Counted from the stretch's first letter, positions 5,590-24,960 are shown. The stretch: DNA of 64,000 nt from an uncultured Thermoplasmata archaeon (GCA_963809035.1 CAWEHV010000002.1:1312113-1376112); one strand, 5' to 3'. Notes: a model not told the origin generated them from the sequence alone. Program-made: numbers and translations.

Positions 5590-5826
5590 ATGATTACGAC
5601 GATCCAAGTTACGCCGGCCACCCGCGAACGACTTGCCGCGTTGAAAAGTTCCCCTCGAGAGACCTACGATGAGCTCCTGAACAAACTACTGTCTCTGGTC
5701 CCACAGGGAGACGATGAAGGGACGTACACCGATGCGTTTCGCATGGGGCTGCTGAACGCTCGACTTGACATCCGATCGGGCCGCGTGACGGAGCACGAGC
5801 AGATCAAGAAACGGTTGGGCCTCTGA
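5590..5826 (+). CDS. Small antitoxin-like protein (archaeal VapB-like / DUF217-type fold)
   Basis: 78 aa, 'ITTIQVTPATRERLAALKSSPRETYDELLNKLLSL' resembles archaeal 'TIxVSxExxxRLxxLK...SYDDVIxxLL' antitoxins; immediately followed by a RelE-like coding remnant. Confidence 0.5.
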   Translation: MITTIQVTPATRERLAALKSSPRETYDELLNKLLSLVPQGDDEGTYTDAFRMGLLNARLDIRSGRVTEHEQIKKRLGL

Positions 5827-5832
5827 CGCGCA

Positions 5833-6090
5833 CATGGTCGATTAAGTGGTCGGACCTCACCGGGTCGGTACCGCGACCTGCACAGACTGGATCGGACGGC
5901 AGCCCGAGGGGTTGTAACCCGGCTTGAAGCTTCGGCTTTGGACCCAACCCACTATTTCACGAGATTAACGACTTCGGACGAATACAAGCTTCGTATTGGT
6001 GACTACCGCCTCCTGGCGGTGCTCTCTCTCTCAGAACAGACCATTCTGGTCGAACGAGTAGACCATCGGTCGCGAATTTATGACCGCTGA
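5833..6090 (+). pseudogene. RelE/ParE-family toxin remnant (no ATG, apparent frameshift) downstream of antitoxin
   Basis: Frame ending TGA at 6088-6090 encodes '...DEYKLRIGDYRLLAVLSLSEQTILVERVDHRSRIYDR'. This matches the conserved RelE C-terminus (YRLRVGDYRIIY...ILRVGHRKDVY). Another frame gives an N-terminal-like 'WSIKWSDL', with a stop at ~5925; there is no intact ORF with a start codon. Confidence 0.5.
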
Positions 6091-6306
6091 CGGTGATCTC
6101 TTCGCGGGCGGTCCCCTCCGGGCAACCGGTGGACCAGTTGCACCTCCCGGAGCGCTGCCATGCGCGTATTGCCGGGCAATTGCAGGAAGGTCCGTGGTCG
6201 TTCCGGAACGTACTGTGATCTCGTCGGGGGTCATCGGGAGAGGAGGGAAGACCGCGGTCTGTTTCAGGTTTGTCTGATCAACCAAGTATACATTTCAGAA
6301 TCCTTC

Positions 6307-6642
6307 TTAGGGTCTTTCCACGGGCCACTTGGTCGCTCGCCGAGTGGACTCGGAAATGGGCGGACGTGCCGACTGGTCATAATTCAGTTTCATCGCAACC
6401 ATCGTGAGCGACAGCGCCAACGTCGCCGCGTTCGCGAGGATCACCGGTACCGATTGGATCAGGAGGCCGTAAATCAGCCACGTGAATGTACCAACGGAGA
6501 AGGCGAGGAATGCCACTAGCGAAATCTCCTTGGCGCTCTTGAGTCGCCATACTCGCATCACTTGGGGCACAAACGCGCCGGTCGTGCAGAACGCTGCAAT
6601 CAACCCGATTAGAGTAATCCACCAGTCCGCGAGGGCAATCAC
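6307..6642 (-). CDS. SemiSWEET / PQ-loop (MtN3-like) small membrane transporter
   Basis: 111 aa, 3 predicted TM helices, conserved 'FVPQV' PQ-motif after first helix. Confidence 0.55.
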   Translation of the reverse strand: MIALADWWITLIGLIAAFCTTGAFVPQVMRVWRLKSAKEISLVAFLAFSVGTFTWLIYGLLIQSVPVILANAATLALSLTMVAMKLNYDQSARPPISESTRRATKWPVERP

Positions 6643-6802
6643 TCCCCGGTCCAGTCCGGTCAGCAGAAGAGGCTGGCGGGGTCTGCCTTTCCTCAGTGGA
6701 CACCATCAGCGGAGACTCGACATCACGCCGTTGAGTCCGGTTTCATCGTGAGTGCAAGTTCGGTTGCGACCCAGGCCCTGAGAACCGAGCTCTCTCGATA
6801 CC

Positions 6803-7836
6803 TTACTCCAGTTCCCTTCCGGCTCGCTGCTGCTCCTCGGCTCTTCTATCGTAGGGGTAGGTGACCTCTAACTCGCTCGCCTTGTTCAGTACCGCGACCT
6901 GGTCCTTACTGAGCGACCAGCCGGTCGAGCCCAGGTTCTCTGAGAGCTGCTCGAGGGTCCGTGCGCCGATTATCGGAGCGGTAACGGCTGGATGGCTGAG
7001 GACCCAGTTGAGCGCCACTTGCGACATGGTCTTCCCCGCCTCCTGAGCGACCGCCTCGACGGCACGGACGATACGATTCGTTCGGTCGTTCTCGAACCGA
7101 CTCGCATAGAACTCCACGTCTTCGGCGTCGGCGATCCGAGTGCCGCTGGGAGGCTTCCGCACCCCCTCTTGTACTTCCCGGTCAGGAAGCCACCGGCCAG
7201 CGGGCTCCAGGGCAGGACCGCGATATTCTCTGCAAGGCACATGGGAAGGAGCTCGAATTCGGTGGCCCGGGCGTACAGACTGTATTGGGGCTGGAGGCTG
7301 ACGGGTTCATGCCAGCCTCGAGACCGGCACAACTGCAGCGCCTTCTCGAACTGCCAGGCGCGGTAATTGCTGATGCCTACGTACCGGACCGGTCCGTCCT
7401 CTACCAGTCTATTGAGAGTGCCAAACGTCTCTTCCAACGGAGTAAGCGGGTCCCACGCGTGGACCTGCAGGAGATCGATGTAATCGGTCTGCAAGCGGCG
7501 GAGACTCTCGTTGACGGCATGGAGGAGATGCTTTCGGGACAGCCCGACGCGGTTCGCGCCCTCGGCCGTCCGGAACCGGGCCTTGGTCGCCAAGACAATG
7601 TCCTGGCGATCGTGATGGGAAAGCCACTTGCCGATGATCTCTTCGGACTTGCCGGATGAGTAGACATTCGAGGTGTCGAGAAAGTTGCCGCCCGACTCGA
7701 CGAAGCGGTCCAGCACCCGGTGACTGGCCTCCTCCTCGGACTGCCAGCCAAAGGTCATCGTTCCGAGGCAGAGCTCGCTAACGAGAACCCCCGTCCGTCC
7801 CAGTTTCTTCAGCTTCATGCCTCCCCCAAGACTCAT
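6803..7836 (-). pseudogene. Aldo/keto reductase, split into two ORFs (6970-7836 and 6803-7240) by a frameshift near nt ~7190
   Basis: N-terminal ORF has AKR motifs: 'LGRTGVLVSELCLGTMTFG', 'IDLLQVHAWD', 'RYVGISNY', 'WSPLAGGFLTGKY'. C-terminal ORF has 'QVALNWVLSHPAVTAPIIGARTLEQL'. Combined length ~344 aa, matching typical AKRs. Confidence 0.7.
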
Positions 7837-8016
7837 CGAATAATCACCCTTCCCGGGCCCCCGACCTCAGCGAGAGCCCGGCTGTCCGCAAGGCAACTGC
7901 CTGAGGAATCTCTGTCGCCCGAGGGTGGTTGTAAATCACGTTGCACCCACTCTTCCGCCTGACGGCGGTGACCGCCCGGGGGCAACGGTAGCCAAGCTTC
8001 TTGATTCAGGAGGAGT

Positions 8017-8907
8017 TTGCGAATCTGGTTGCTGATGGGGGCGTCGCGAGGTCTACTCTGGCCAATCGTCCGACTGGGCGCAGGGACGGCCCTTGTGGCG
8101 CTGGGTTGCGCAGTCGAGATTGTTGAGGACCAGAACGTCTACACCATTTCTCAGTCGATCTCACTTCCGGCCTTGCTTGCCATCGTCGTGGGATTGGTCC
8201 TCGTGGCAACAGGATACTCCCGGGTGCTTCGATGCACCTACGGGGGCACTCGCAGAATCGCGTTCGGGGTCGGAGTGGCGGCCGGCGCTGCCACATACCT
8301 CATCTCATGGTGGTGGTTGTTGACCTACGGGTTCACTGCCTATCTCGAAGCATCTTCTGTCGGGCTGGTGCTCTTCGGCGGAGCCGCCATGGTGCAGGTC
8401 GGATGTCGGTTCGCGACCGCCCCCAAGTTGAGCTTTACAGATCGCGACGCACAGATTCGAGGGAATGCGCGTCCGTCACCCCTCTTCTTGTCCAGTAGCG
8501 CGCGGACCGCTGTCGCCTGGGCTCTTATCGGAGTGGCTGTCGTGCTCTTAGGCGAGATGACCCTGAATCTTGGGTGGCTCAACAACCAGGCGGCGACAGT
8601 CGATCCGGCCTACCAGTACCTTGCAATCGAAGTCATGGGACCCGCCGCGTGGTGGCTCGCCACAGGTTACTCTGGCCTAATCGACAATCTTTCCCCGCGC
8701 CCCGCACTATGGGTCGGGTTAGGGGGGATAGGGGCCGGTGCCGCCTTCGTGCTTGGGGGGTACGCGTGGTGGTCCGGTTGGTCGCTCTATCCCGAGCTCG
8801 GGCAGGTCATCTTCATCCTGTTGACCATCACCGGCCTGGGCCTTTGCCTCTTCTCCGCCAGTTCGCTCCGACGCCGCACTGCACTTGCCGCGGGCATCGC
8901 GGTGTAG
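8017..8907 (+). CDS. Polytopic membrane protein of unknown function
   Basis: 296 aa, ~8 hydrophobic helices, Trp/Gly-rich loops; no recognisable family motif. Confidence 0.4.
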   Translation: MRIWLLMGASRGLLWPIVRLGAGTALVALGCAVEIVEDQNVYTISQSISLPALLAIVVGLVLVATGYSRVLRCTYGGTRRIAFGVGVAAGAATYLISWWWLLTYGFTAYLEASSVGLVLFGGAAMVQVGCRFATAPKLSFTDRDAQIRGNARPSPLFLSSSARTAVAWALIGVAVVLLGEMTLNLGWLNNQAATVDPAYQYLAIEVMGPAAWWLATGYSGLIDNLSPRPALWVGLGGIGAGAAFVLGGYAWWSGWSLYPELGQVIFILLTITGLGLCLFSASSLRRRTALAAGIAV

Positions 8908-9014
8908 ATCCCTCGACCGCGCAGTCGACCCCCCCATTCACGAGTGATCCGGCCGTCAGCTCCTGGAATATCTCACGAAAGCACCTAAGGTGCAAATCTG
9001 TGGGTGCATCTGAG

Positions 9015-9240
9015 GTTACACCCACCGCCCGGCTCCAAGTGAAACAGTTCGTTGATTGGCAATCGAATACGCTAACGCTAGCAGTTAGTGTGCCAATGGC
9101 CGTTCTGTGCAATGCAACTACTCGAGGAACCTCTGTCGCACAAGAATGGTTGCAACTCCGATTACACCCGCCCCCCGGCGCCAAGCAGAACACTTCGTTC
9201 AACAACGATCGAATACGCTGATGTTAGCAGTCGGTCCGTC
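9015..9240. repeat. Two copies of an ~85-nt direct repeat (9015-9100 and 9155-9240, ~75 % identity) in intergenic DNA at the high-GC/low-GC boundary
   Basis: 'ttacacccaccgcccggctccaagtgaaacagttcgttgattggcaatcgaatacgctaacgctagcagtta...' versus 'ttacacccgccccccggcgccaagcagaacacttcgttcaacaacgatcgaatacgctgatgttagcagtc...'. Confidence 0.6.
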
Positions 9241-9403
9241 GATGGGTGTGTAATGCATTACGCATTCCACAGGAGTCTCGATGGTTGCATCCAGGCCGGG
9301 GCCCTGGCGCAAGATGAGAAGCAACCAACCCGGCTACAAACCGACCAGGGGCCGTCATCCTGAGAAGAACTTAATTCATTGAAACTGGGTCCTCATAGAG
9401 TGA

Positions 9404-10432
9404 ATGGTCGATATCACCGTAATCGTTCTTGCACATGACCGAACGGAATACATAGTCGGGGCCCTCCGGAGCTTACTGCGCCAGACGCTCCCGCGGGATT
9501 CGTTTGAGGTCGTTATCGTCAAGAACTTCGTTCTCGAAGAGGCCGACCGGCTTGCGGCCGAATGTGGATTCAAATCCATACTGGCCGAATCGAAAGCGTA
9601 TGGCGAGAATCTCCTAAAGGGCCTCAACAATTCCTCTGGAGAATTCGTCTGCCTTCTCGATGAGGATGACCTCTTCGTTCCCAAGAAGCTTGAAACGGTT
9701 CTGGGAGAGTTTAGTAAACACCCACGAGTGGGGTCTTGTTCGAATAATTTTGGAATCTCGATAGTAAAGGCGGATACCGTCCAGAGCATTGGGGTCACGG
9801 AGAGCAGATCGTAAGGCCCGCGTTCGAGCTGGTACGATTTTATCTTGGGCCCCCACACCAGCTTCGCCAACTCGCAAAGCTACCTCCGTTGAGCCCTGAC
9901 TTCAATTCGAGTTCGATTACTTTTCGGCGTGATCTTCTCACGACAGCAATGCGCGATGCGATTCGCAAGCTGGATGGGGGCGGAGATACATTCCTGTTTT
10001 ACTGCGCCGTTACATCAAAATTGGAATTGGGTATTGGTTCGGATATTCTGACCCTGTACCGACTTCACTCGGCAAATAGGTCCTCAGGGTTAGGGCCTCC
10101 TGGAAGTGGAGGATGGGTCCGGATTCGCCGGTACCGTACTAACCGTTCAGTTCAGTGGTCGATGCTGGCGAACGGGGCTGTTCGACGCACTCGACGACCC
10201 TTCAGTTGGGCGATCGGTTCGGGCGTTGGCAGCCTATCATGCATTTTACGCCGCAGAGATGGACGCAAGTCCGGCTCGCAAGAGAATCCTAGAATCTGCC
10301 TCTCGACTGACCCAGTTCCGCGACACATATACGGCACAGGTAGCACCCAACGTTCTCCTTCCGACACTTCTGTACCTGACATCACCTCGCATAGCACAAT
10401 GGTTCTCCTTCATTCGGCAAGCTTTGCGATAA
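9404..10432 (+). pseudogene. Family-2 glycosyltransferase broken into >=3 frames (9404-9814, 9889-~10100, 10106-10432)
   Basis: N-terminal fragment 'VDITVIVLAHDRTEYIVGALRSLLRQT...FEVVIVKN...LLDEDDLFVPKKLE' carries GT-A/GT2 motifs including DxD. The ORF stops at 9814 and continues in other frames. Confidence 0.55.
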
Positions 10433-11054
10433 GGCTAGTCCTTGTAATGCCCGGGAAGAATTTCTATCAATGGCGTTCAGAGTTAACCAGTGCGCTCTCT
10501 CGACTATTGATACACGGGTATGCGCTCAGATTGACTTGTGAGAGTTTCAGCTCTCCAGCTCCGGTTCCACCATTCTTACGCGAAAAAAACTGTGGCTCGT
10601 TTGAAACTGCGTGAGTCTGCCTAGCGAACGAGTAGGGGACAAAGAGACCAACTTGTCGCACGCTCTGGGCGAATAGGGGACATTCCATGTCGAACTTACG
10701 AGTTAGTGAGGGTCTCCAACTTGAAGCGGTCGCGAATTTCATTCCAAGTCGCTTTCCTACTGGATCGTCATGAAGTCGGGACTGAACTGGCAGTTGGACC
10801 CGGTTTGGGTCATCAAATAGATTTTGATCATTGAAAGTGCTATAATTTACCGTCCCGCATCGGGAGCCGGCAGACCAAAGAAATCAGGTCTAGTTAGCGT
10901 CGATGGGTTCCGCCAGACAGGAACTTCCTGAGGCGCTCCGTCAAGCTGAGCGACCAGAAATAGGACCATTCCCTGGGGAGTGGCGGTAAAGCGTTCATAA
11001 CCCGATAAGCGAAAGCATAGTGAGGCATGACGCGAATCTTGATCGGCACCCTGG

Positions 11055-11705
11055 CTACGGTGGGGTCCCAGTACGGCAGTAGCGCCCTCTGAGTCTGAAG
11101 AAATGACCGCTCGATATACAACAATGTGTTTTGCGCGTACCATGAAGCGACATCTGGGTTCGGAGTAAGGCGGTCCCGTAGCGCATCGACTGGGACGTAA
11201 TTGTACAGCCCCGGAACTTCCGGGCCCAATAGTCAGGCCACTGGCAGTTCAAGTGGTTGACACCTGTTTGGCCGGGAACTGCAGCAGAGAACAAGACCAC
11301 CGGGGCGAGATTGACAAGGGATTTTACGATCGAATCACTGCTGATCTTTTCCAAGTGCTCGGCCACCTCAAGGCAGATGACCAAATCGAATCGGCGCCCA
11401 ATCTGTAGTGGTTGCTCGAGATTGAGCGCACGAAATCGATCTGGAGAAATCGAAAGGGAACCGACTGGAACCCAGCTACCATCGACTCCCAAGAAGTCCG
11501 AGACGCCAAATCGCGAAAACTCTGCTAAGAAGGCTCCAACCCCGCATCCGACGTCAATCACGCTTCGGGGGGGCGTGGAGAGTAATTGGTTCAGCATCGG
11601 CACAATCACACGAGCTGCTGCTTCTGAATCGGCCCGAATCCCTTCGAAAAACGACTCACTGTACTGGCTCTGCGGGATAAGCCGAGAGCCACAATTTCCC
11701 GGCAT
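11055..11705 (-). CDS. Class I SAM-dependent methyltransferase
   Basis: 'VIDVGCGVGAFLAEF' (motif I GxGxG), 'RFDLVICLEVAEHLE' (motif II/III). Confidence 0.75.
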   Translation of the reverse strand: MPGNCGSRLIPQSQYSESFFEGIRADSEAAARVIVPMLNQLLSTPPRSVIDVGCGVGAFLAEFSRFGVSDFLGVDGSWVPVGSLSISPDRFRALNLEQPLQIGRRFDLVICLEVAEHLEKISSDSIVKSLVNLAPVVLFSAAVPGQTGVNHLNCQWPDYWARKFRGCTITSQSMRYGTALLRTQMSLHGTRKTHCCISSGHFFRLRGRYCRTGTPP

Positions 11706-11969
11706 CAGTTAGGTGCTCACCCAGTTTGATTCTGCATCATGGATTCGAATAGACCGACATACAGACTCCACGAACTCTATACTGACATCGGGTAGCTGGC
11801 GCAAACAACCAGGAATACCATGACTTCAATGAAGGCTCATGATTGGGTATCCAATAGATTCAACCTTCCGGTCAATGCGAAAATCATGGGGGGTCTGTTC
11901 TAGGAATCGCCGTTGGATTTCAGGGCCGCCCGCCCTTCAAACCTGATACCCGTGGGGTGATAAACTCGA

Positions 11970-12752
11970 TTGGGGTTTAAGAGTGGCACAATGGACGCCT
12001 TGAACCAACTATTCAACAGCAACGACCCTAAAGAAGTATTCCAATTCTATTCACATTTCCCTAGCCGCGAGAGCTTGATCGACTGGATGCAAAGAAGGCC
12101 GGTTAGCGAGCCCATAATACGTGAGGTCGCAGGAGAATCTGACTTGGTGATCGTGATCCCTACGGCGGATTACAACGGTGTAATGGCGAAACGGTGTCGC
12201 GAGGAGGTCTTCTCCGGCCAGCAACTGGTTTTTCTGGAAAGCAAGGAATCCCCGGATCCGTTTTTTAACTTCGGTCGATTTGTAAACCTCGGTTTTGCAA
12301 GGGCACTGGACTATCAACCTCACTGGATTGCCTATTCCGGTGATGACGTCAGCAAAGTTGATGATATCGCCACACTAAAGCAGGCCCTTTCAAAACTCAA
12401 CCGGAGCGAAATCAAGACTGTATTCTGCCAACCATCGGGGGCGTATCATTCTGTTAGGTCCAAGGTCGTGCGATACAACTTATTGTATTTCACGGCCATG
12501 CATGCTCTCGGCAGAGAGCGGAGGCGAATGGCCAAGCTGCTTCGAAAGTTCAAACTCACTTATGCACCGGGAAGCCCGCAGGGCTTGAGGAAAACTCCAA
12601 GGTTCTTGTATTCCACGATACACGAATACATTGACTCGACTGCGTTCGGGATCTATAGCGCAGAATTCGTGCGGGCAGCCTTGTTAAGCTTTTCGACGAA
12701 GTCTATATCAACAATCGAGAAGAAAGTGAGCTTTCTATTCGACTCAGTTTGA
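11970..12752 (+). CDS. Hypothetical protein, possibly GT-A-like glycosyltransferase
   Basis: 'DLVIVIPTADYNG' and downstream 'YSGDDV' loosely resemble the GT-A 'IPTYN' and DxD motifs; no strong family match; lower-GC codon usage. Confidence 0.3.
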   Translation: MGFKSGTMDALNQLFNSNDPKEVFQFYSHFPSRESLIDWMQRRPVSEPIIREVAGESDLVIVIPTADYNGVMAKRCREEVFSGQQLVFLESKESPDPFFNFGRFVNLGFARALDYQPHWIAYSGDDVSKVDDIATLKQALSKLNRSEIKTVFCQPSGAYHSVRSKVVRYNLLYFTAMHALGRERRRMAKLLRKFKLTYAPGSPQGLRKTPRFLYSTIHEYIDSTAFGIYSAEFVRAALLSFSTKSISTIEKKVSFLFDSV

Positions 12753-13113
12753 ATCCTGAGGAGTGCGCCTTCGTCACTTTCCGTATTAACCCCGGAATTG
12801 GAGCCACCCTTGGCAGGGGCGAGGCGCGAGCGCTGAGGGGTGTCGCCAGCGAGTGTTATTTCAATCAAAAGATAGAGCGCGGTGACTTGCTCCCTATATG
12901 TCAGGATCAGCCAATGATAATCAGATAGGACCGCAAGGAACACTTCGGTTACTGCGCTTCAAGGCATGTGGGTCGGCCGCGAGTGGATGAAAAATGGGTG
13001 ACCAACTATGAGAGAAATGCGATCGTACGGGCTCAGGCGATAAGAGGTGATGAAAACCCGAGGCACGATCAACGCGCCTGCGGAAGGTTATCTCCCGACT
13101 GGGTCTTCTTCGG

Positions 13114-15293
13114 TCAGTTTCGGCGCGGAGGTTTCTCATTGGAATCTGCCGTTTTCCCTGATCCACCAGACCGTCGTTGCATGAGCCAGCGAATTGCGCG
13201 CCCAATTCTCAGGGGTGGGGCAAAAACTGATACGATCAACAAGGACGCGAGGAGAATTGTCAGGGCTAGAGCTTGCACCCCAACAAGTATCAAGTGGATG
13301 CTTTGACCTTCGAATTGTAGGACGTAGCCGAAATCGTTCTGTTTGAATGCCTTTGGCACTACAAACCCGTCCTCCCAGCCGGCGACTATATGGGACGAAG
13401 TAATGGTTGAATCAACGGTCATTGACCAAAGCGAGCTGAACCCATCAGAAAGCATAACAATGGATGTCATGTTTCCCAATGTGCCTGAGTATTCGGTTAG
13501 ACTAGTCGAAGTGATGGTCAGAGTTGAATTTCCGGTTGATGCCGTTGCGGAGGATCCTCGGGTCGAACGGACCGAGCAAAAGTGAATCCAACTCTATGGA
13601 CCCCCTGACATTGATTCTTAACTGCGTGGACCGGACTTCCGACTGAAGCGCTATTGGAAGCCATTCCAAGTAGCGATTCGTCACCGTAAAGTTGGCAATC
13701 GCCATCGACCCGTTAGCGACCGCGACGCTGCCGTTTCCACTTACATGAAGCGCGAGACTCGCGAACGGGGACGGATTCACCGTGAGGCTCGCATTTAGGC
13801 TACCGTTGGAGGCGATCACTTCGCCAGCCAAGGCAGTTGGAGTTGCCTCGATGTGACGCGCATATCCGGGGAAATCTAGTGACGAATACGCAAAGAAGAG
13901 CTGGTCCGATACGGACGCGTTCGAGTCGCAGAGATCAAAGCACACCTCTCTGACCGGAGTCCCTGCCGTTGTTAGGGCATCTGCAATCGAACTGGAGAAA
14001 TCAATGGTTGGTAGGGGGATGTAGGCAGACAGTGCCGATGATGAGGGTAGCTGAGAAAGGGGCAATTCCGCAACCAGTACCCGATGGGACTGAGGGGAAG
14101 TCGAGTGATAAACTCAGATTAGAAACGGTGTATGTAGCCAGGCTTCCAGATCCAAAGTTGGTTGGGAAGGCTACGGTGATCCCTACGTCCGCGGTGAGGG
14201 GGTTGAGTTGTTGTGGACTGAACGGAACTGACACGTTGGGCTGCGTCGGAGTCCCAACGGTGTAGGAGGGGATCTCCCAAAGGATAGCACCAACGGAATC
14301 GAATCCCGCAACCGTAACGTACCCCCCGAGATGCTTCGTGGGACCCGTATAGTTTTGATAGAATCTGTACTCCATACATTTGGTCCTCCACTGGGATCCG
14401 GTTTGAGACCAGATAGAACCCCGGATTGCTCAGCTGGGTACTACTCCCAGTGATTGTGTTGCTCGCGCTTAGAACGGTGATGTTCATTACTCCCGAGCCG
14501 TTGACACCGAAAACCTCGTACCCATTAGTAGTATCTTGAATGCCATTAATGAGATTCGCTGGACCGGGCATGGACCAGCGAGACAGGTTTGCGGGCCAGC
14601 TCCCAACTGTCTGGTTGAGGGGCACTGATGCATTCCCTGCCTGAACCACCGCTATGCCTGGAGCGGCCGTGACAAACGGTCGGTAGTCGATGTTGAGGAA
14701 GGCGACGAAGAGACTGGAATTGAACACATCTTCCAAGTCACGTTGCGCTCTAAGGAGGTCAAGGAACGTCTTGTAGGTGAACCGATGAGCGAACCCTCAT
14801 TCCATTGTGGGGGGCCGGTGAAGTTCGCTTGGAGATCGACCAGCACGTACCTAACTGAAGCCTGTCCGAGCAGGACCCCGATCCGATCCGTTCGATTCTG
14901 AATCAAGTAGTTCAACACCGTCGTAGAGTAGTCAGAACTAAGGGGACCTACGAACAGATTGGACACGCTGGTCGCACCTTCATACTCCGCTAAACCAAAC
15001 GTGTTAATGGCGAATGGCCCGAACTCAGAACCTCCTCCCGGACCAGGGAAAGGAAGTACGAGAAATCGCGAGTCTGAGATTCCACCATGAAGCTCGAGGA
15101 ACGAATCCATTGCAGGATAAGCCGAGGGAACCGTCGGTCCCCATTGCGGAGGTAGCCCGAATGTGCCGGGGGCCTCAAGCACGTTGAAGTCGCCGCTTTC
15201 CAAGTAGAATCCCGCGGGGGCCACCAGGAGAATGAGTACCGAGAGCACATGATGCCACGGTCCCCGGTTGGTGAATCGCCCGATTAATCCCAT
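13114..15293 (-). pseudogene. Degraded ~730-aa surface protein gene split over five overlapping frames (14652-15293, 14119-14736, 14001-14375, 13502-14065, 13114-13479)
   Basis: Head fragment has a signal/TM 'HHVLSVLILLVAPAGF'; body fragments are rich in N-x-S/T sequons. Tail fragment ends in a TM helix plus basic tail 'LILVGVQALALTILLASLLIVSVF...RRSGGSGK', like the intact surface proteins in this window. Confidence 0.5.
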
Positions 15294-15532
15294 GGCGCAG
15301 CCTAACGGGGTGGGTGTGTCCAGTTCGACGATCCGTGCCGGTAGTGCCGGGTGAAAGGGAAATCATATCGGTGGAAAGGCCGCTTTGTTCTAAGTTCGCA
15401 ATTCTGTCAATGGTGAAAGTGGCGAGAATCGTTAACGAAACGAAACGTGGTACGCGTAGAACTCCCCAGGATAGTTGAATATAGTGAGCAGACCGAATGC
15501 TTTGTACAGGGGGAGGGTGAATCCGGCCGCTG

Positions 15533-16738
15533 TCAAAAAGATCCATAGGCCGCAGGAGACGTAGAGAAGGGCGACGAGGTGGCCGAGTTCTCGGTACTTG
15601 GGCATCTCACGAAGAGCAGTCCGGAAAGCGCGAACCCACTGAATCCGACAAGGAGAGCCTCCGACGGAGGAGGATAGAAAATGGCGTATCGCACAGATAA
15701 TCCGGCGCCGAGGAGGGAAAAGAAATTGAGTGGGTAGCTGAACCCATAGGAGATTGGAACTATCGATGTCGCGACCCCGAAGGAGGGTTGAATCGCTCCG
15801 CTAGTGAAATAGGTAAGGTTTCCAAAGTAGAACGGAGCGTTAAGGAGCAACGCCAGCGCAACCGCCATTGTTATCCCGCCAAACAGCCGAAGCCCAGTAC
15901 CAAGCGACTGCCGCGTCAATCCGAGTGAGAGTGGAAGAAGGAGTAGGAGGGGCAATACGTAGACCGGGCCAAAAGGAACAAATGCGAAGATGAAACCAAG
16001 AACCAGCGACAGCAGAATCACCGGTTTTGCCCAAGAACCCTGAGCGATACGTAATGAGAGAAGGAAAACCGTGGGCAAGAGAAGGTCAAAGGGAATCGAA
16101 CCGCTGGCGTCGAAGACGTCGATAAAAAGATAGGGACTGAGCAGAAATAGGATTCCCCCTATCAGCGCAAACTTTGGCTGCTCAAGATGGGGTTCAAGGA
16201 GACGTTGAAATGAAACCGCGCCGACAAATGAGAATGAGATCAGTGTGAGAGGCTCGAGGAGGGCGGGCGGAATTCCAATGATTGAGAGCATTGAGAGGAG
16301 GACATAACTCGCGGGCTGGGAGGAAGAATAGCCTAGCACTCGAGGATTCCACTGGGAGAGGTATACTGCTATACCATCGGTTGAACGCGTGCCTGGGAAA
16401 AGCAGGAAGAAGTCAGGCGTGATCAGTTGGCCGTTCGAAAACATTGTGCGGAAGAGGACCAAGATTAGAGTGAGCAATGTTCCATAGCTGCAAAGCCGCC
16501 ATTGGACTCGTGCGCCCCAAAACAGGGGCGGTGATCGATCGCCGTTGGAGATGTTGGCCACGGAAGTCACGTTGTCGATTCGTTCATCCTGAGTGCCGGG
16601 ACGAATCAAAACTCCTAAATTGATGTGGTGAGTCCTGGCGGTCAATTCTGGACAACACGTTTCGGTACCCACGCTCGGTGAGTTCCCCGATACGCTCGGC
16701 GGAATAGGCTTGCGCGGCCAAAGTCCTCGCTGCCTCAC
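15533..16738 (-). CDS. Polytopic membrane protein (possibly a GT-C-type glycosyltransferase or polymerase; family unassigned)
   Basis: 401 aa with ~10 hydrophobic helices, Pro/Leu/Phe-rich; sits among glycosyltransferase genes. Confidence 0.4.
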   Translation of the reverse strand: MRQRGLWPRKPIPPSVSGNSPSVGTETCCPELTARTHHINLGVLIRPGTQDERIDNVTSVANISNGDRSPPLFWGARVQWRLCSYGTLLTLILVLFRTMFSNGQLITPDFFLLFPGTRSTDGIAVYLSQWNPRVLGYSSSQPASYVLLSMLSIIGIPPALLEPLTLISFSFVGAVSFQRLLEPHLEQPKFALIGGILFLLSPYLFIDVFDASGSIPFDLLLPTVFLLSLRIAQGSWAKPVILLSLVLGFIFAFVPFGPVYVLPLLLLLPLSLGLTRQSLGTGLRLFGGITMAVALALLLNAPFYFGNLTYFTSGAIQPSFGVATSIVPISYGFSYPLNFFSLLGAGLSVRYAIFYPPPSEALLVGFSGFALSGLLFVRCPSTENSATSSPFSTSPAAYGSF

Positions 16739-17668
16739 CCAACCTTTTGCGAAGGCCGGTGTCCTCGATCAACATACGAAAGGCAGAGGCCCAGTCTTTG
16801 GGGTTACAAGAAGGGACAATTATCCCGTTTTGTTTATGGCGAACGAAGTCACGGACGGGCGCCAGATCAGATACTATCGAAGGTGTGCCATGAAACGCTG
16901 CCTCGATAACAGTTCCGCAGTACGCTTCTCGGAAGGATGGGAGGACGAATGCGCATGATCCGGGAAGTGCCTTCCGCATTTCGTCGTTCGACAAAACGGT
17001 CTCGAACCTGACGTTCAATTTCCAACCCTGAAGCTAGGAATCGAAATCGTTGTCGCTCCTCTCGTAAGACTGTTGCCTTGACTGGAACACCCTGTTGGTA
17101 GAGTATGTGAAGTGCCTTGAGAAACAAACCGGTATCACGACGCTGGTCCGGCCCCCACGTAGAGGAAGTGGAAAGGGTCACACAGCACCGTCTCGGACGA
17201 AGCCCATGACCGCGGTACCAGTTCAGGTATCACTTCCATTTTCGAGGAGGCGCCGGGATACAACTTGGTAAGTTCTTTCCGCACAGCCGTGGTCTCCGCG
17301 ACGATCCAATCTGCCACTTGCACGCACAAACGGTCGTTATGGGCAAGCATGAAATATTTCGGAGCCGACCAGAAGCGTGTCCGAAGGGGAAGCCGTTCCC
17401 ATTCCTTCAAAGTGACGTCAACCACATGGAAGACGCGAGCACTCCAGTGAGGAGCGTTGCGGCTGAAAGCCCATCCTAGGCCGCCCCCTCGGGCATCAAT
17501 GATATCAGCCCCCGACTTTTTTGCCGAAGCTGCGAGGAATTTCGATACCGCCAGGTTCGCCGTCCATCCGCCAACATAAGGGTAATGGTAGTTAGGGATA
17601 CCACTGACGTGAACGCCACGAATAAATGAATTCTGCGAGATTTGGACGTACGAGTGGATGATGGTCAC
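16584..17668 (-). pseudogene. GT4-family glycosyltransferase broken into three overlapping ORFs (17135-17668, 16867-17181, 16584-17018)
   Basis: C-terminal fragment 'FREAYCGTVIEAAFHGTPSIVSDLAPVRDFVRHKQNGIIV' is the GT4 E-x7-E region. N-terminal fragment has a GT4-like N-domain. Overlaps imply two frameshifts. Confidence 0.5.
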
Positions 17669-18051
17669 GTCGTGCCCCTCCTAGCCATTTCCATTGCGAG
17701 CTCCCCCGTAAAAACTGACGCGCCCAACATCGTGGTTGAGCTGAACGGGTCATGCGGGACAAGGTAGGTAATCGAAAGTGACTCGCTCATCGAATCCCCG
17801 GGCCGATTGAGAGCATCATGTGTGTGAGGGGGGAGAATATCCAATGTAATCGCAAACTCTTCACGTCGATGTGGTTCGAGGTTGCAAAATCCCGATAGAG
17901 CCGCCGGCCACAGGACCAACGACTGTCGGAGAGGATTTTGAAGTGACTCATGCTCGCGAAGAGATTCACGGCGCAAAACCTCTCGAAAAGTGATAACGAG
18001 GACACCAAGAGAAGAATACTATTCCTGTCACGAGCATCGGCAATTTGTGAC

Positions 18052-19336
18052 TTACAGTAAGCGTGCTCGGAAGAAAGCTATCTGATTACTTGCCGTGCGC
18101 TCGGCAGTGAAGGTCGGTGGTATCACTTCCAAGCTGGCTGCGATCTTGTCTCGAGTTTGATTGTTCCCAAGCAAATTCACCACCCGGTCAGCAAATAGAG
18201 TCGCGCTTCCGACCGGTACTCGAGGAATGGCAGATCCAAGATAATCATATGCTGGAAGGTCATAGACGATAGGGACGCAACCGTAAGCAGCTGCCTCCAT
18301 TACGGCCAAGGACCACCCTTCCTCATAGCTGGGGTATGCGAACAGTTTGGACGCGGCGAGGAGGTCGCGTTTGTCGTCGTCTGAAAGATGACCTCTCAAT
18401 CTGATGAATTCGGTGAGTCCCACTTTCTCTATGGCTAGTCGGATTTGTCGTTCGAACTGCGGCGATTCGAAATCTCCGCCGACGACCAAGCAAGCGGTGG
18501 GCAGCCGGCGATGGACTTCAGCCCAAATGGATACGAGATCGAATAGTCCCTTCATTGGAGAAAGCCGACTGACAAAACACACATCAATGGGTCGGTCGTG
18601 CGCCCTTAACGTGTCAGGTTCCGGATAGCTGTCAAGGAAGATTTCGTCGTGGAGGACGGGGCCTGAAAACCTCCATCCCGACTCAGAAAGAATGCGTACT
18701 TGGTCAATACTCGGCACGAACCTGCAGACCTTTGTGATGACCAGTGCGGCTTGGTTGACAAGCCAGGGCACCGGCGCACCGAATTACGCCGCCCCGTCGT
18801 CTCGGGTGCCGCCAGGGAGCAGGGGTGAGGTGATGAAATGCAATGACTAAAGGCAGGTTTGACCTTTCTGCGATTCGGCGCGCAGGGACGATATCTAGTA
18901 GATTGGGTGACGCCGCGATGACGATGGATTTGGTGGGGATCTGAGTGGAAGGCGCGACCGGGATGCCAGGGGCTACCGTATTCGTCAGCGCACCGACCAG
19001 AGTCCTGAGGGGTTCCAAGAGGCTACCAGCCTCTTGGTTGATCACGGTTCGCCTAGTCTGCCCAATTGAGACCACTTGGCTGCACTTTCCTTCAAACTCG
19101 TGTGGAAGGTTCGTATACACTGATACAAAGTGCCCCTGCCTGACCCACTCCTGCGCCAAGCGAACGATATGGATTAGTCCTCCTCCGCCTCCTCCCACCA
19201 GCGACGGTCCCGACCTGGTACGGACGGTCACCATATGAAATATCTGGATGTGAAGAGGCGGGTTTCCGGAGGGTTGTGGCACTCCGGGAAAATTCGACAT
19301 TAAATCTTCCAGATTAGCGGGCTTAGGTCTCCGCAT
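18052..19336 (-). pseudogene. GT4-family glycosyltransferase split by a frameshift (18704-19336 N-domain; 18052-18771 C-domain)
   Basis: N-domain 'GGGGGLIHIVRLAQEWVRQGHFVSVYT'. C-domain 'AYPSYEEGWSLAVMEAAAYGCVPIVYDLPAY'. The two ORFs overlap by 68 nt in different frames. Confidence 0.55.
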
Positions 19337-20466
19337 CCCACATCTAGTTGGTTAGTTTGAGTATGGCTTTTAAGTCTCACTGTAGGAACGGTGCTGCACT
19401 CTATTTGGTTGGCCTCGGGAAGCGAAATGATTTTGCTTCTTCACTCGGTGATGATTGCTCGGACGCCTGAAATTTGTAACCTCGGTGGCGCCAGCACGTC
19501 GTTCCTCCCTTGAGTAAGCAGGGCCCGCCCTTGTTCCAAGGCATGGTGCTCTCGAGACCGTTTCCACACCCCCGAAATGCAGTCTTGGTTTGCGACGCTA
19601 CGAGTACACGCAAATCTCGTTCTCGAGCCAGCACTCAATTTTCCAGCTCCTTCCGGCCGAATCCAGAAACGACCAGGTAGACGATTGCGGTCTACCATCG
19701 CATCGGGGATCCAGGTCAGTTACTCTTTCAGTCGACCCTTTGGGATGTGTCCGAATCTATCCCGACGAAATGCGAGCTCGAGCTTACCCAGCTCTAATGA
19801 AGCCAACCCATTGCTTGCGAGGAATCGATGACTTCAGCGCCTGACCTCCTTCGACCGGTACCGATCGATTCGAGTGTAGCCCCTACTCTTGACGAGCTCA
19901 GTGTCGTCCCGGATTGCTGGAGGTTCGTGATGAGTCTTCCTCTGATTCCGGACCCGAGGTCGAAACATCTCGTCCTCCTATCCAGTTGCCCACTTAGTGC
20001 GGTCCGAGCACCCTCCCGGCAATTGTCGATGTGCTCGGGAAAATAGGGCGTCGACCTTTAGCGGCGACGACCGAGGGGAGATGAAGTGCATGTCATCCCC
20101 CGAGAGAAACCTGAGTGGAAAAGGGGCTAAAGCACGCGGCGGGGCGCTTGTTTCCATATGCTGTGGCGAGAATCCAGCCCAAATATCGCCATGTTGCTAT
20201 GTCAAGTTGAGCGTTACCTATATTTCCTCTCTCCCGAAGTCAATGCGGGGCCTGAAAATTAATGAAGAAGCACGGAGGGGTGCGTTGCCCCTGGTCGATC
20301 GCGTGGTTCAGTGGTTGCCCTCTGCGATAATCAGGTTCTCTCATGTCCAGGCGAAGTTCGCACCGTTCCGGGCCCGTGACTCTCACTCAAGCGTAGGGCC
20401 AAAAGGCGCGAAGGGTTTGAATCAGATGCTCGGAAGGACCAGCATCCGCTGCAGTGTTGGTGTCCG

Positions 20467-21540
20467 ATGAGGATTCTGTGGTTCAGCCATCGCGACATCG
20501 AGCATCCGAGCAGTGGCGGTGACGAACGAGCCATCTACGAGATCACAAAACGTCTGGTCGCTTCCGATAACGACGTCACATGGGTCGCATGCCGATTCCC
20601 GGAATCTCAAAGGGAAGCCACCAGGGACGGAATTCGAATTCTTCGACCCGGCCACGCCTTAGTCACGCATCTTAGTGTAGCCTCCATTATCAAGTCCACG
20701 AGACCGGAAGTCATTGTTGACGACTTGGGCCATGTGATTCCATGGTTCTCGGAAGAGCTAACCGATACTCCTGGGACCGCTTTCTTCCTCCACCTGCATG
20801 CTCGAACACTTTCAGGGCAGGTGAATTCGCTCTTCGTTCCAGGACTCACCTACCTCGAACGACAGTACCGACACATTTACCCAAGGTGGCCGTTCGTCAC
20901 AATAAGTACCCACAGTCTGCAGGATCTAGTTGAACTCGGAATTCCCGAACGTCGGGTGACGAGAATCCCATTGGGCGTGGATTTGCAGAGATTCCATCCC
21001 TCGCCAAAGAACCAGAATCCCATAGTGGTTTATTTCGGCGGATTCCGCGACTACAAGCGACCCTGGGTACCGGTGCAACTGTACAAGAAATTGCAGCAAT
21101 CGGTGAAGGGGGTCAAGCTTGTCATGATTGGCGACGGACCCATTCGAGCTCGAGTTCAGTCCGCCGCTCGTGATTCGGGAATTGAGTTTGTGGGGAAAGT
21201 CAACCCAGACCGCCTCTCGGAGCTTGTTGCGCGGTCGTGGCTGAACGTACACAGTTCGGTTTCGGAGGGATGGGGACTCTCAATAATCGAGGCCTCAGCA
21301 TGTGGAACGCCGACCGTCGCTTTCGCGGTACCTGGCGTCGCCGAGACTATTGAAAATGGATTCAATGGAATCCTTGTCCCTGACGGCAACCTGGATGAAC
21401 TAGCTGATGCGGCGACCGGGCTTCTAAATCACCTCGATGACTGGCCTGAGCGTTCAAGGAGACTTGCAGAACGCTACACTTGGGACGCGACCGCAGCCAA
21501 TTGGTTGAGCCACCTTGAGCGGACGCTGACCGAAAAGTAG
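20467..21540 (+). CDS. GT4-family glycosyltransferase (intact)
   Basis: 357 aa; 'HSSVSEGWGLSIIEASACGTPTVAFAVPGVAETIENGFNGILV' is the canonical GT4 EX7E region. Confidence 0.8.
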   Translation: MRILWFSHRDIEHPSSGGDERAIYEITKRLVASDNDVTWVACRFPESQREATRDGIRILRPGHALVTHLSVASIIKSTRPEVIVDDLGHVIPWFSEELTDTPGTAFFLHLHARTLSGQVNSLFVPGLTYLERQYRHIYPRWPFVTISTHSLQDLVELGIPERRVTRIPLGVDLQRFHPSPKNQNPIVVYFGGFRDYKRPWVPVQLYKKLQQSVKGVKLVMIGDGPIRARVQSAARDSGIEFVGKVNPDRLSELVARSWLNVHSSVSEGWGLSIIEASACGTPTVAFAVPGVAETIENGFNGILVPDGNLDELADAATGLLNHLDDWPERSRRLAERYTWDATAANWLSHLERTLTEK

Positions 21541-21876
21541 GGAAACGTCCGATCAACTTGCGGGTGAGCGAACGTGCCGCGAATCCCTTCGCTCGAGCTG
21601 AGTGCAGCTACCCAACCGCTCACATGGGTCAGAAAGCTGAAGCTCTCCGCGACCTCTCCTCAAGGGAGTCAAACGCTCGACGCTTGGCAACGGAATAAGC
21701 GGAGACAACGAGGGGGTGCCGCCTAGAGCTCTTCGTATCAGATCGACCCAAGCAAATCATGGAACTTTTGAATCAGCCTGGGGGGGACCCTCTTCCCCGC
21801 TGGAGAGTTCATTACACGAATCCCGACCAGAGAAACAAACATTACCGGAATCGCCCCCCCGATAGGCATCCTGGTC

Positions 21877-22521
21877 TCAAGATTGTGCGTCCAATGAATG
21901 GGTACTTCTCGAACTCAGGTGCCCGGCTTTGCGGACATGGTAAAGGAAATCGACATCGAACGCCCGGTTCGTCAGTGTCACAGTCTTCAAAACCGGGCCA
22001 ATGACCGAACTCCGGAAGAACTTCACTCCGCACTGCGTGTCCCGTAGGGGCAAAAATAGAAGAGAGCGCGTTAGGAGGTTCCATACGCGTCCGACGGCTC
22101 GGTTGAAAAGGGGTTCCGCCCCAACCCCCGTTGCGCCACGTGTCCAGCGCGAAGCAAGGACAAAATCAACTTCCGCAAGGTGTTCCACCATTCCGAACAT
22201 CTCGGCTGGGGAGATCGGACCGTCGGCGTCGAGGTACCCTACGAATTCGAACTTTGCCTCTTTTAAGCCCTCGAGCACCGCGCCGCCCTTCCCTAATTTT
22301 GTCGGGTACCTTAGCACTCGAACATGCCGTCCAGTGTACGCCTCGGCGACCTGGGCGGTACGATCGCGAACCCCGTCAGCAACAACGATAATTTCGAACT
22401 GCTCCCCTCGGGCCTCAAGTGCAGAGACGTAGCGCTCGAGCGTCCGGGAGAGGCGGTCCTCTTCATTCCAGGCAGGAATGACGATGCTAACCCCCGGAGC
22501 GCTCAAGTCCAGCTTCGTCAC
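21877..22521 (-). CDS. GT2 glycosyltransferase, dolichyl-phosphate mannose/glucose synthase-like
   Basis: 'VSIVIPAWNEEDRLSRTLERY', 'EIIVVADGVRDRT', 'YLDADGP' (DxD); 214 aa catalytic-domain-only architecture typical of archaeal DPM-synthase-like enzymes. Confidence 0.75.
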   Translation of the reverse strand: MTKLDLSAPGVSIVIPAWNEEDRLSRTLERYVSALEARGEQFEIIVVADGVRDRTAQVAEAYTGRHVRVLRYPTKLGKGGAVLEGLKEAKFEFVGYLDADGPISPAEMFGMVEHLAEVDFVLASRWTRGATGVGAEPLFNRAVGRVWNLLTRSLLFLPLRDTQCGVKFFRSSVIGPVLKTVTLTNRAFDVDFLYHVRKAGHLSSRSTHSLDAQS

Positions 22522-22663
22522 TACCGTTTACCACGATTGTAGCCCTATTTCCCCCTTCCGAGGGACTCCACGGGCTCGGGGAGGTATAACCGGGCCCGTC
22601 CTCTGTGAAATCCAAGGAGGGAGGGTCTCGGATCGTGAATTGACGGTGTGTGTAATTGCACAT

Positions 22664-22775
22664 GCACCTACACAGTTGCTTGCTTCCGGTAAGGGGACCC
22701 TTCGGAGAGCCGGAGCTCAGCCGCCGTAGGGTTGACCCTTCTCAAAGCCGGAGATTGTCAAAGGACCCCCTGAAT
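22664..22775 (+). repeat. Intergenic repeat element copy A (contains both modules 1 and 2)
   Basis: 'cacctacacagttgcttgcttccggtaaggggaccctt...ccgccgtagggttgacccttctcaaagccggagattgtcaaaggacc'; module 1 recurs at 26917-26975 and module 2 at 30505-30595. Confidence 0.6.
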
Positions 22776-22953
22776 TTGGGCAGTAACCCTCCTCGGTCGA
22801 CAAGTCGAAAGAGGATTGGAAATGGCTCGTCCGTCAAGCCCCGGGGAGAATGGGAGCTCTCGACCCTCCTGGGCCGCGAACCATCCCTACGTCGCGAGTA
22901 GGGCCCCCTTATCCGGCTGGGGATCGTGTAAGAGGCCCTATTGTCGCTCCGAT

Positions 22954-24708
22954 CTAACCCGTGCCATCGGACATCACGGCCGCGTCGTTCGCAAACGAGA
23001 ACGCGACAAAGATTTCCCCCTTCGCACTGTCATACGCCACTCCAACAGGGGCGGAAACCAAAGGGGGGGTGGCGCCTGCCCAGACATCCCCCACCATCCT
23101 GTTTGTGGATGTCGACATCACACCAACGACCTCTGAGATCCAGCAAGTGATGAAGAGCTCCCCAGTCCCGCCATCGTACACTAGCCCGGAGGGGTAGTTG
23201 AACCAGCCAATGGTCCCGTTCACGGCCCCGTACACATTGATCCGCATCCCCGTGTTGGTCGTGTCATTGATCACGAAGACCCCTCTCCACGTTCCTAGCA
23301 CTCCATCGACCGCGACAAAGACCTCTCCGTTCGTGGGGTCATACGCGAGCATCTGGGGCTGGTAGCCTACTGGGACGGACGCCACCACCGAGTAGTTGGT
23401 ATCGTTGATCACGTTCACATCGGCCAAGGTGTAGCTTCCCACAAAGGCTGTGGCGAAGATTTCGCCTTTACCGCTGTCGTATGCAAGGCTGAGGATATTG
23501 CCTCCCATCGCAATCGTGCGGACCACTTTGTTGGTGGAAGTGGAGATCACACTTATGCCACTGCCACCGCCAACAAAGACCATCCGCTTCGCGCTGTCGT
23601 ACGCAATGCCTTGAGGATTGGCGGTCACGTTGATGTTCGCCACGACCGAGTTTGTCGCATCATCGATCACGCTTACGTTGTTCGACCCGGTATTCGTGAC
23701 AAAGATCTCGCCCTTCGCGGGGTCGTACGCCATTTGGTCAGTGTTGTTGCCTGCCGCGATGATCGCCACTACTGTGTTCGACGTGTCGTTGATCACGCTC
23801 ACGTTGTTCGCGCCCTCGTCGGAGACAAAGACCTCCCCCTTCCCGCTGTCATAGGTTGCAGCATACGGATTGCTGCCCACCGGGACGGTCGCAATGGTTT
23901 GGATTACTGATTTGTCTATGAACCCCGCCTTCGAGTTTGAGAAGGCGAAAAGGCCGAGCAGTTCGGTACGTTGAGGCGCATTGGATGCGTGATAGATTGT
24001 AGTCTCCGCGACGTGGTAGGTACCGGCCGCGAGCTGCGCCACACCAAACGCCATGCCGGGATAACTTCCAGCGGTTGCACTCGATTCGAGGGTCAGCCCC
24101 GGGATTCCTGCAAGGACGATGGTGCTGCGAGTACCGCTACTAACTCCGACGACCACGACGAACGCGGGCTCTGGCAAAACGAGCTTTTCCTTGAGCGTGC
24201 TGTTTTACCTGATAGGTAACGAGTGCGATGTGGTCTTCTCACCGTAGAACTGGAATCCGCTCACGCCCACGGCTCCAATTGAGAAGTGGTAGTCGCTTGT
24301 CGTGTAGTTGTCCAAATCAGCCTGGGTAGCGGCAATCCCTGCTGCGATGTGCCCCTGCGAATCGACGGCGGAGACCAGATTCCCGACCCAGAATCCGGTG
24401 GTTTGGCGGACACCACTGTTGGCCATCGCGAAGATGTTCAAGGTAGCAGGCGCCGTCGGGTTCGTGAAATTAAGCGAGTCCGTCTTGTTGAGGATCGAGA
24501 CACCTGTCACATAAGGGGTGGTCGCAGCCGCGCCGGTAGGTCCAGCGGCCAGGGGTGTATCGGCCATTAGGGCCGAGACAGACGGTACCAGCATGATGGC
24601 GCCGATTGCCACGACTATGGTCACGGCAATCATGTGAGCGACCCCAATACGCGCTTGGCCATTCCACCCGGACGACACCTTCTGCATGGTTCGGTCTCCC
24701 GTTCCCAA
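22954..24708 (-). pseudogene. YVTN beta-propeller surface protein with N-terminal class-III-like signal/TM, interrupted by one in-frame TAA (24205-24207)
   Basis: ORFs 24205-24708 and 22954-24177 are in the same frame, separated by a single stop. The upstream part has 'RIGVAHMIAVTIVVAIGAIMLV'. The downstream part has >=8 YVTN repeats ('VxxTIxVGxxPxGxAYDxxxGEVFVxN'). Confidence 0.55.
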
Positions 24709-24960
24709 CGCCTGGCAAAGTGGGACAGCGGCCAGAGACTACCCACCTCCGTTGATTCGAATTGACTTACAGCTAATATACACTGACATAGCGGGGGCCG
24801 TCTCGAGCTCAATCGGGCATTCGTAAGGGTTGAGGGGACGCGTCATGACTGCCTACGGTAACGGCGCAGTGCTCAAACCGTCTGTATACCCGAAACCTAT
24901 TACGCGAATCGAGCCTTCGAGCGACTGCGATGCGAATCGGAGAAAATTGGGGGGAGGAGC

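Follow-up and report, generated by a model that had tools for sequence, protein, structure and literature searches.

Gene content and extent of the low-GC cassette

The stretch of DNA analysed here (64,000 nucleotides; GCA_963809035.1, CAWEHV010000002.1:1312113-1376112), hereafter the window, is assigned to an uncultured Thermoplasmata archaeon on the basis of the names of its homologues and of two GTDB species representatives with members of the same family of GT-C glycosyltransferases. It contains a low-GC island of nine genes, here named cassette A, for which a role in cell-surface glycan synthesis is predicted (Table 1). Seven of the nine genes are broken by frameshifts. A sequence-only reading of the window had described this island as a horizontally acquired N-glycosylation or surface-layer-glycan cluster undergoing serial gene decay.

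The GC content is 0.616 in positions 1-8996, 0.538 in 8997-22416, 0.599 in 22670-39130 and 0.660 in 39131-64000. The drop into the island that the sequence-only reading had put at 65 to 50% is real, but its size is about 62 to 54%, and only the left edge, at about 8.9-9.0 kb, is sharp, the right edge being gradual. The GC content at third codon positions (GC3) separates the island better than GC: it ranges from 0.54 to 0.65 in nine island genes, for which intact gene models from a sister contig were used, and from 0.72 to 0.89 in nine flank genes, so that the proposed check of codon usage supports a distinct island. Contig comparison places the left junction exactly at 8996|8997 and the right junction somewhere in 22417-22669. 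A tRNA scan found no tRNA anywhere in the window, which argues against tRNA-targeted integration, and an Rfam scan of the whole window yielded zero matches and hence no known RNA within the direct repeat at the left edge. This repeat, announced as about 85 nt long at 9015-9240, is indeed present, with slightly different limits (Table 1), and begins 5 nt past the left junction. The long high-GC open reading frames (ORFs) of the window, of 1673, 1070, 1267 and 1661 codons, are unbroken, as had been noted.

For comparison, the window was aligned base by base with contigs from public assemblies. L001 is a Logan contig (SRR16963054) and L006 a further stretch of the same contig; together with L003 (JGI 3300079084) and L004 (ENA ERZ27241255, k141) they are short-read contigs from different samples. 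L001 to L004 belong to six public contigs on which the intact GT4 (20467-21540) is encoded without a single residue changed. L002 (ENA ERZ25039509, contig_162766) is a long-read contig, L005 is an ENA contig of the long-read type (named in the 'contig_N' style) and L009 is a long-read-style contig. Flanking sequence was checked over the 25.7 kb covered by short-read contigs. Frameshifts were mapped by contig comparison; a GC3 frame plot was too noisy inside the island. An insertion or deletion (indel) was counted as GTAC-linked if it lay within 8 nt of a GTAC.

Table 1 Features of cassette A and of its surroundings in the window (aa, amino acids; GT, glycosyltransferase)
Feature	Position	Strand	Basis and remarks
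Low-GC replacement cassette (cassette A), predicted cell-surface glycan synthesis island	8997-22669		GC, GC3, contig comparison
Direct repeat, two copies of about 99 nt, 73% identical, spacing 146 nt	9001-9099 and 9147-9245	+	one dyad motif per copy
Dyad sites	7927-7950, 9002-9025, 9148-9171, 22646-22669 (-), 26900-26923		degenerate 24-nt pattern
GT2_341, GT2 glycosyltransferase, 341 aa if intact	9404-10432	+	Pfam PF00535; indels 9758, 9793, 9797, 9838, 10174
S-adenosylmethionine-dependent (SAM) methyltransferase, 269 aa if intact	10897-11705	-	Pfam Methyltransf_23; insertions 11207 and 11209 beside GTAC
312-aa protein	11991-12928	+	1-nt deletion at 12685; intact in L001, L002, L005
Predicted AftD/Emb-like GT-C membrane glycosyltransferase, 1107 aa in intact copies	13114-16444	-	tblastn pieces, fold
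GT4_369, GT4 glycosyltransferase, 369 aa if intact	16584-17694	-	Pfam Glycos_transf_1 / Glyco_transf_4; indels 17031, 17144, 17675
GT4_427, GT4 glycosyltransferase, 427 aa if intact	18052-19336	-	Pfam; single insertion 18766
126-aa protein, intact	20090-20470	+	100% identity to other copies
GT4 glycosyltransferase, 357 aa, intact	20467-21540	+	Pfam; identical protein on 6 public contigs
GT2_263, polyprenyl-phosphate-sugar-synthase-like GT2, 263 aa if intact	21738-22530	-	Pfam PF00535; insertion 21916
Mosaic patch private to the window, with about 70% identity to every other copy, even that of the otherwise identical L002	22417-22650		still encodes GT2 N-terminus
Aldo-keto reductase (AKR), high-GC flank, 338 aa if intact	6803-7818	-	T missing at 7169 beside GTAC
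ParE-like toxin gene, 10 inserted bases private to the window within 40 nt (3+3+2+1+1)	5830-5870	+	beside GGTACC

Pfam supports the GT2, the three GT4 and the methyltransferase that the sequence-only reading had listed, and a second GT2 (GT2_263) has to be added. The ORF described there as GT-A-like, which is the 312-aa gene, had zero matches in Pfam, NCBIfam and PDB sequence searches; it is conserved in a further species (L021), again beside the gene for the GT-C protein. A 'surface-protein gene' (13114-15293) and a 'polytopic membrane protein' (15533-16738), thought to be separate genes, correspond to one gene of 1107 aa in intact copies. In the window this gene lies in 8 pieces, separated by 7 indels (13555, 14080, 14366, 14771, 15239, 15444 and 15604), while it is intact in L001 (2657-5980) and L003. 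The genes reported as split are broken, but the list was incomplete: the methyltransferase gene, the 312-aa gene and the GT2 gene at 21738-22530 are broken as well. GT2_341 is intact in L006 (16004-17029), and the two halves of GT4_427 in the window match the intact protein at 100% identity. GT2_263 scored 37-51 bits against the NCBIfam models PpgS, ArnC, AglJ and Dol-P hexose transferase, which is far below their cut-offs of 325-529; its first approximately 35 codons and its upstream region fall inside the window-private patch. A PADLOC scan of the island proteins detected zero defence systems, with a weak match of the methyltransferase alone.

Exchange of the cassette between strains

Between 6776 and 8996 the window differs from L005 and L006 by about 93-95 substitutions (about 4%, with a three-base periodicity), as against about 0.1-0.2% differences across 9010-22400. 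The proposal that the island is horizontally acquired and strain-specific is thus well supported, both by its distinct composition and by an identity of about 99.9% amid flanks that diverge by about 4%. Contigs L007 to L012 have a left flank that is 99.5-99.8% identical to that of the window. In L009, L010 and L007, with left flanks of 99.5-100% identity, the match to the window ends precisely at the junction 8996|8997 and a different cassette follows (cassette B; L009 3559-10397, L010 3563-5405), which comprises genes for a tyrosine integrase and for a TIG-domain surface protein of 1132 aa as well as small ORFs. Strains with cassette B come from the same samples as strains with cassette A. 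On the right side, the agreement of L001, L003 and L004 with the window ends at 22564-22669, beyond which their flank has TMEM175, DUF1801 and thermopsin genes, and L002 remains collinear and nearly identical to the window as far as 44.6 kb. Synteny, which had been named as a check of strain specificity, therefore speaks for it: other contigs have an unrelated cassette at the same junction and differing right neighbours. With regard to mobility, cassette A has zero integrase genes (cassette B has one) and an imperfect inverted dyad at both junctions. On these comparisons, cassette A is a replacement-type flexible envelope island in a hypervariable surface-protein region. Recombination would carry the cassette between strains, which would leave an identical cassette in backgrounds that are about 4% apart next door.

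The window-private patch at the right end of cassette A gave 0 hits in the JGI metagenome scan. It is best read as a real mosaic that arose by allelic, gene-conversion-like recombination and not as an error, because a proper GT2 N-terminus is still encoded; within the ORF of the window, the GT2 Pfam match begins at residue 12.

Part of the cassette is also present outside the species. A module consisting of the two broken GT4 genes, the GT-C gene and the 312-aa gene is collinear in another Thermoplasmata species (a GTDB representative), where it lies in lower-GC DNA as well, with amino acid identities of 68% for GT4_427, 62% for the GT-C protein, 58% for GT4_369 and 38% for the 312-aa protein. 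Because of this collinearity, the module would seem to be a conserved, functional unit of the flexible gene pool of the lineage.

To the right of cassette A, a second variable segment extends over about 22670-39130. It is absent from L001-type strains, in which GT2_263 is directly followed by TMEM175, DUF1801 and thermopsin. Its content includes NHL/YNCE beta-propeller surface proteins (407, 1070 and 523 aa) and a pilin-N protein, along with several PIN/VapB, MazE and DUF4258 toxin-antitoxin pairs. At the opposite end of the window, positions 102-5123 encode a secreted protein of 1657 aa, in which a phosphoesterase domain is followed by about 14 tandem repeats of about 85 aa. In L007 an extra gene for an 836-aa PKD-domain protein stands after the gene for this 1657-aa protein.

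The dyad at the junctions has the form GGGTGCA-N8-TRCACCC, a 7-8-7 layout within an element of about 24-31 nt, and this layout resembles that of a tyrosine recombinase core site. With a degenerate 24-nt pattern, five sites were found in the window against 0.01 expected, all of them intergenic and within 7.9-27 kb. They stand upstream of the genes for a 290-aa membrane protein, GT2_341 (twice), GT2_263 and the 1070-aa beta-propeller surface protein. One copy begins 5 nt after the junction of cassettes A and B. The dyad in cassette B (L009 7404-7427) is identical in 30 of 32 nt to window positions 8997-9028 and lies between the TIG-domain gene and the integrase gene, with unrelated surrounding sequence on both sides. 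At the right junction, contig types switch at the edges of the 8-nt spacer of the dyad at 22646-22669, in two independent flank switches. A scan of viral contigs for the dyad site gave 0 hits. The dyad might serve recombination: an integron-like system, driven by an integrase, would use it as its site to reshuffle the envelope and glycosylation cassettes of Thermoplasmata, an idea suggested by its placement but one that we regard as doubtful. Alternatively, it could be an operator common to promoters of envelope genes. As a recombination or as a regulatory site, the junction dyad merits attention.

Frame breaks and consensus quality

The cluster found in the window occurs at about 99.9% identity in L001 to L004 with intact genes, encoding proteins of 269, 312, 1107, 369, 427 and 263 aa, to which L006 adds that of 341 aa. 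In comparison with these copies, the island has 23 window-private indels between 9298 and 21916 (13.4 kb), comprising 18 insertions and 5 deletions, each of 1-2 nt. Wherever L001/L006, L003, L004 and L002 cover one of these sites, they agree with one another and have the intact allele. The only exception to the agreement among contigs concerns positions 14080 and 14366, where the indel of the window is also present in the long-read contig L005. Window-private substitutions in the island amount to about 13-20. The interval 10456-22400 has about 13 of them, including 5-6 that adjoin an indel. The ratio of indels to substitutions is thus about 1:1. When the intact proteins were searched against the window with tblastn, the fragments were 98-100% identical and the frame switched exactly at the indels. 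Exact-protein look-ups of three products particular to the window (an AKR product of 288 aa, the truncated product of the 312-aa gene and a 261-aa ORF) returned zero records. Relative to the intact copies, the island has no nonsense codons, no deletions longer than 2 nt and no insertion sequence (IS) elements. The indel sites are mostly non-repetitive, the longest run involved being 4-5 nt.

The density of indels is 1.71 per kb in the island (23 in 13.4 kb) and 0.43 per kb in the flanks (11 in 25.7 kb; binomial p about 7e-5). The earlier observation that frame breaks accumulate in the island thus holds, but the lesions are not confined to the island, as the AKR gene (7169) and the ParE-like gene (5830-5870) are affected too. 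A link to the tetranucleotide GTAC is found in both compartments. In the island, 8 of the 23 indels are GTAC-linked against a background of 6% (p 4e-5), and in the flanks 7 of 11 against a background of 7.5% (p 3e-6). The same association is seen between contigs of one strain: L005 and L006 differ by 11 substitutions in 14.1 kb and by 12 indels, 8 of which are at GTAC, and a comparison of the window with L015 shows 2 substitutions in 20.3 kb and 8 indels, with 5 of these at GTAC.

The indels of the window and of L005 coincide at three GTAC sites (7169, 14080 and 14366). Since the core flanks of the two are about 4% apart, common descent of the three lesions is unlikely and a systematic miscall likely. 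The first of these sites lies in the AKR gene, which all short-read contigs and L010 carry in intact form, while the lesion recurs in the long-read-type contigs L005 and L009; position 7169 is thus, on this comparison, apparently a recurrent systematic error site. The insertion cluster in the ParE-like gene, which follows a 78-aa DUF7557 antitoxin-like gene (5590-5826), is lacking in 8 other contigs, and the ParE Pfam match is present in L008; the cluster looks like a local consensus glitch. A different type of change was found at 10117-10176, where the window has five A-to-G differences within 60 nt, seen against L005 as well as against L006, in contexts such as GGATCC and CCAGTACC and next to an inserted G at 10174. 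These look like modification-related adenine miscalls. The gene at 102-5123, on the other hand, has zero indels compared with two short-read contigs, which points to a good consensus of the window beyond the island.

It is documented that errors in nanopore consensus sequences accumulate in homopolymers and at methylation motifs (Wick et al. 2019, PMC6591954). Similar to the errors described there, those of the window are associated with one short palindromic motif and recur at the same sites in independent long-read assemblies while being absent from short-read ones. They differ in that the motif is GTAC and not Dcm or Dam, that many of the changes are indels and that they are concentrated in 13 kb.

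Taking both lines of comparison together, we consider it highly probable that the window holds a real, exchangeable envelope cassette and that its frame breaks are consensus errors of the long-read type. Part of the frame breaks would be systematic miscalls at GTAC, probably because the motif is methylated, and the remaining ones would reflect a locally poor consensus across the cassette. A cassette that is common to co-occurring strains, or present in only part of the population, would presumably suffer from worse coverage, unique mapping and polishing. Such an account of the error concentration by strain variability fits three observations: the alternative cassettes lie on neighbouring contig numbers in both ENA samples (long-read assemblies ERZ25039509 and ERZ25039587; contigs 162765/162766 and 108215/108216), short-read contigs end at 8996 and at about 27.9 kb, and the cassette is identical in otherwise differing strains. 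A denser occurrence of GTAC was rejected as the cause of the concentration, as the motif has 3.1 sites per kb in the island and 3.3-4.4 in the flanks.

Several points weigh against consensus errors as the sole source of the frame breaks. The island has four times the indel density of its flanks, and 15 of its 23 indels have no GTAC alongside, so that the GTAC effect alone leaves the concentration unexplained. The errors are deduced indirectly, from the comparison of contigs. The junction of a window-type left flank with cassette A had 0 hits in JGI metagenome contigs, and these thus yielded no error-free copy of exactly this lineage. Lastly, the private allele at 22417-22650 sets the window apart as a lineage of its own, one that could in principle have acquired real mutations.

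A mixed origin would mean that most frame breaks are consensus errors and a few are real inactivations, for instance the single indels in GT4_427, the 312-aa gene and GT2_263. The excess over the flank error rate, about 17 events, would leave room for such cases. The individual indels, however, are all of the same kind as the obvious errors, each being of 1-2 nt and window-private, and the protein sequence around the indels is 98-100% conserved; we therefore regard a mixed origin as unlikely.

Genuine pseudogenisation, by which the cassette would no longer be used in this lineage and seven genes would carry real frameshifts, could draw on the fourfold indel density in the cassette, on the standing of the window as a distinct lineage with a real private allele and on the missing error-free copy of the exact combination of flank and cassette in the JGI scans. 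Neutral decay is expected to yield many more substitutions than indels, and prokaryotic pseudogenes usually show a deletion bias. In contrast, the island has 23 indels against at most about 20 substitutions, many of them touching indels, and an 18:5 bias towards insertions. Nonsense codons, deletions longer than 2 nt and IS elements number zero, and a third of the indels are at GTAC, just as between long-read and short-read contigs of one strain. Furthermore, three lesions occur at identical sites in the unrelated long-read contig L005, and the housekeeping AKR gene is struck likewise. Pseudogenisation is accordingly very improbable in our judgement, and the earlier view that the cassette is being inactivated is not upheld: the indels are private to the window, clustered at GTAC and about as frequent as substitutions, and the genes are intact in assemblies from other samples. 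That same reading had named homopolymer sequencing errors, with intact genes restored, as the evidence that would overturn it; the intact copies elsewhere speak indirectly for such errors and so against the decay, although the sites are mostly not homopolymers.

Phase variation or programmed frameshifting, with slippage in repeat tracts toggling surface glycan genes, has a precedent in the phase-variable glycosyltransferases that are common in bacterial surface-glycan loci, but it is ruled out for practical purposes by the sequence contexts of the indels, which offer no long homopolymers or short tandem repeats (longest run 4-5 nt), by up to seven indels per gene, which are incompatible with a switch, and by the damage to non-glycan genes (AKR and ParE-like).

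If consensus errors caused the frame breaks, then what looked so strikingly like serial decay of an acquired island is an artefact of assembly quality, and the window represents a cautionary case. Strain-variable islands would be the weakest spots of long-read metagenome consensus sequences, and pseudogene counts in them need to be checked against reads before they are given a biological meaning. What is left standing is a well-delimited replacement island for the cell envelope in an uncultured Thermoplasmata population.

The GT-C protein and relation to known systems

The 1107-aa protein had zero matches in Pfam, NCBIfam and PDB sequence searches, and a search of PDB sequences with a profile of its family gave 0 hits. 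An exhaustive search with hidden Markov models (HMM) collected a family of about 124 representative clusters at 50% identity, the distant members of which have a CBM_4_9 domain in the ectodomain. Based on an alignment of 33 sequences gathered by this search, AlphaFold returned a model with a predicted local distance difference test (pLDDT) of 83 and a predicted template modelling score (pTM) of 0.78; a 6-sequence alignment gave a pLDDT of 31. With this model, Foldseek placed AftD (PDB: 6w98) at the top (E 1.7e-17, probability 1.0), followed by EmbA/B/C (1e-7 to 1e-8). The aspartate of a 'TPDFF' motif is at least 90% conserved across the 33 homologues; its position in the first external loop derives from the model alone. 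The protein is accordingly predicted to be a GT-C glycosyltransferase with carbohydrate-binding ectodomains and a C-terminal anchor. Its true start is probably about 100 nt upstream of the called one, so that about 30-40 residues, including the first transmembrane segment (TM1), were missed. The AftD-like family, so far unannotated, could in this way gain a name and a fold.

Cassette A likely encodes a glycan assembly line; the enzyme classes follow from Pfam and fold, and from these we infer the order of the steps and the acceptor. The three GT4 and the GT2 enzymes would build a lipid-linked sugar in the cytoplasm, and the methyltransferase would decorate the lipid-linked glycan. GT2_263 would charge the lipid carrier to give a lipid-phosphate-sugar donor, from which the GT-C protein could move sugars onto a surface glycan, a lipoglycan or the glycan of a glycoprotein outside the membrane.

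The N-glycosylation label of the sequence-only reading is not established for this cassette. In a Pfam scan no island protein had a PF02516 hit, which would indicate STT3/AglB, and no flippase was recognised in the island either; the sole GT-C protein is AftD/Emb-like by fold. Similar to archaeal agl clusters, cassette A combines GT2, GT4 and methyltransferase genes with a putative Dol-P-sugar-synthase-like GT2 in a low-GC, strain-variable region. In contrast to them, it has no recognised STT3/AglB or flippase, and its GT-C protein does not resemble STT3. Because STT3/AglB is missing from the island, cassette A was not classed as an agl cluster.

The closer structural relatives are the mycobacterial arabinosyltransferases AftD and EmbA/B/C (PDB: 6w98 and 7bvc). 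They share with the island protein a polytopic GT-C membrane domain, a large beta-sandwich or carbohydrate-binding ectodomain and a C-terminal helix, and the match to AftD covers the whole length of the island protein. As a further parallel, a putative polyprenyl-phosphate-sugar-synthase-like GT2 is encoded alongside the island GT-C gene. Nonetheless, the identity is 11-13%, the TM-score reaches only 0.38-0.43 and the host is an archaeon.

As a genomic element, cassette A is best compared with replacement flexible genomic islands such as the cell-wall island of Haloquadratum walsbyi (Martin-Cuadrado et al. 2015, PMC4535781). In both, a single locus holds alternative, unrelated cassettes for surface glycans and surface proteins in co-occurring strains. 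Islands of the H. walsbyi type also resemble the present case in their deviant composition, in the maintenance of intact versions, in exchange by recombination and in the occasional presence of genes of mobile elements, represented here by the integrase of cassette B, and in both cases short-read contigs break at the island edges. The Thermoplasmata island differs from that of H. walsbyi in its host, an uncultured archaeon of the soil or peat type, in the AftD-like GT-C protein at its centre and in the conserved dyad at its junctions.

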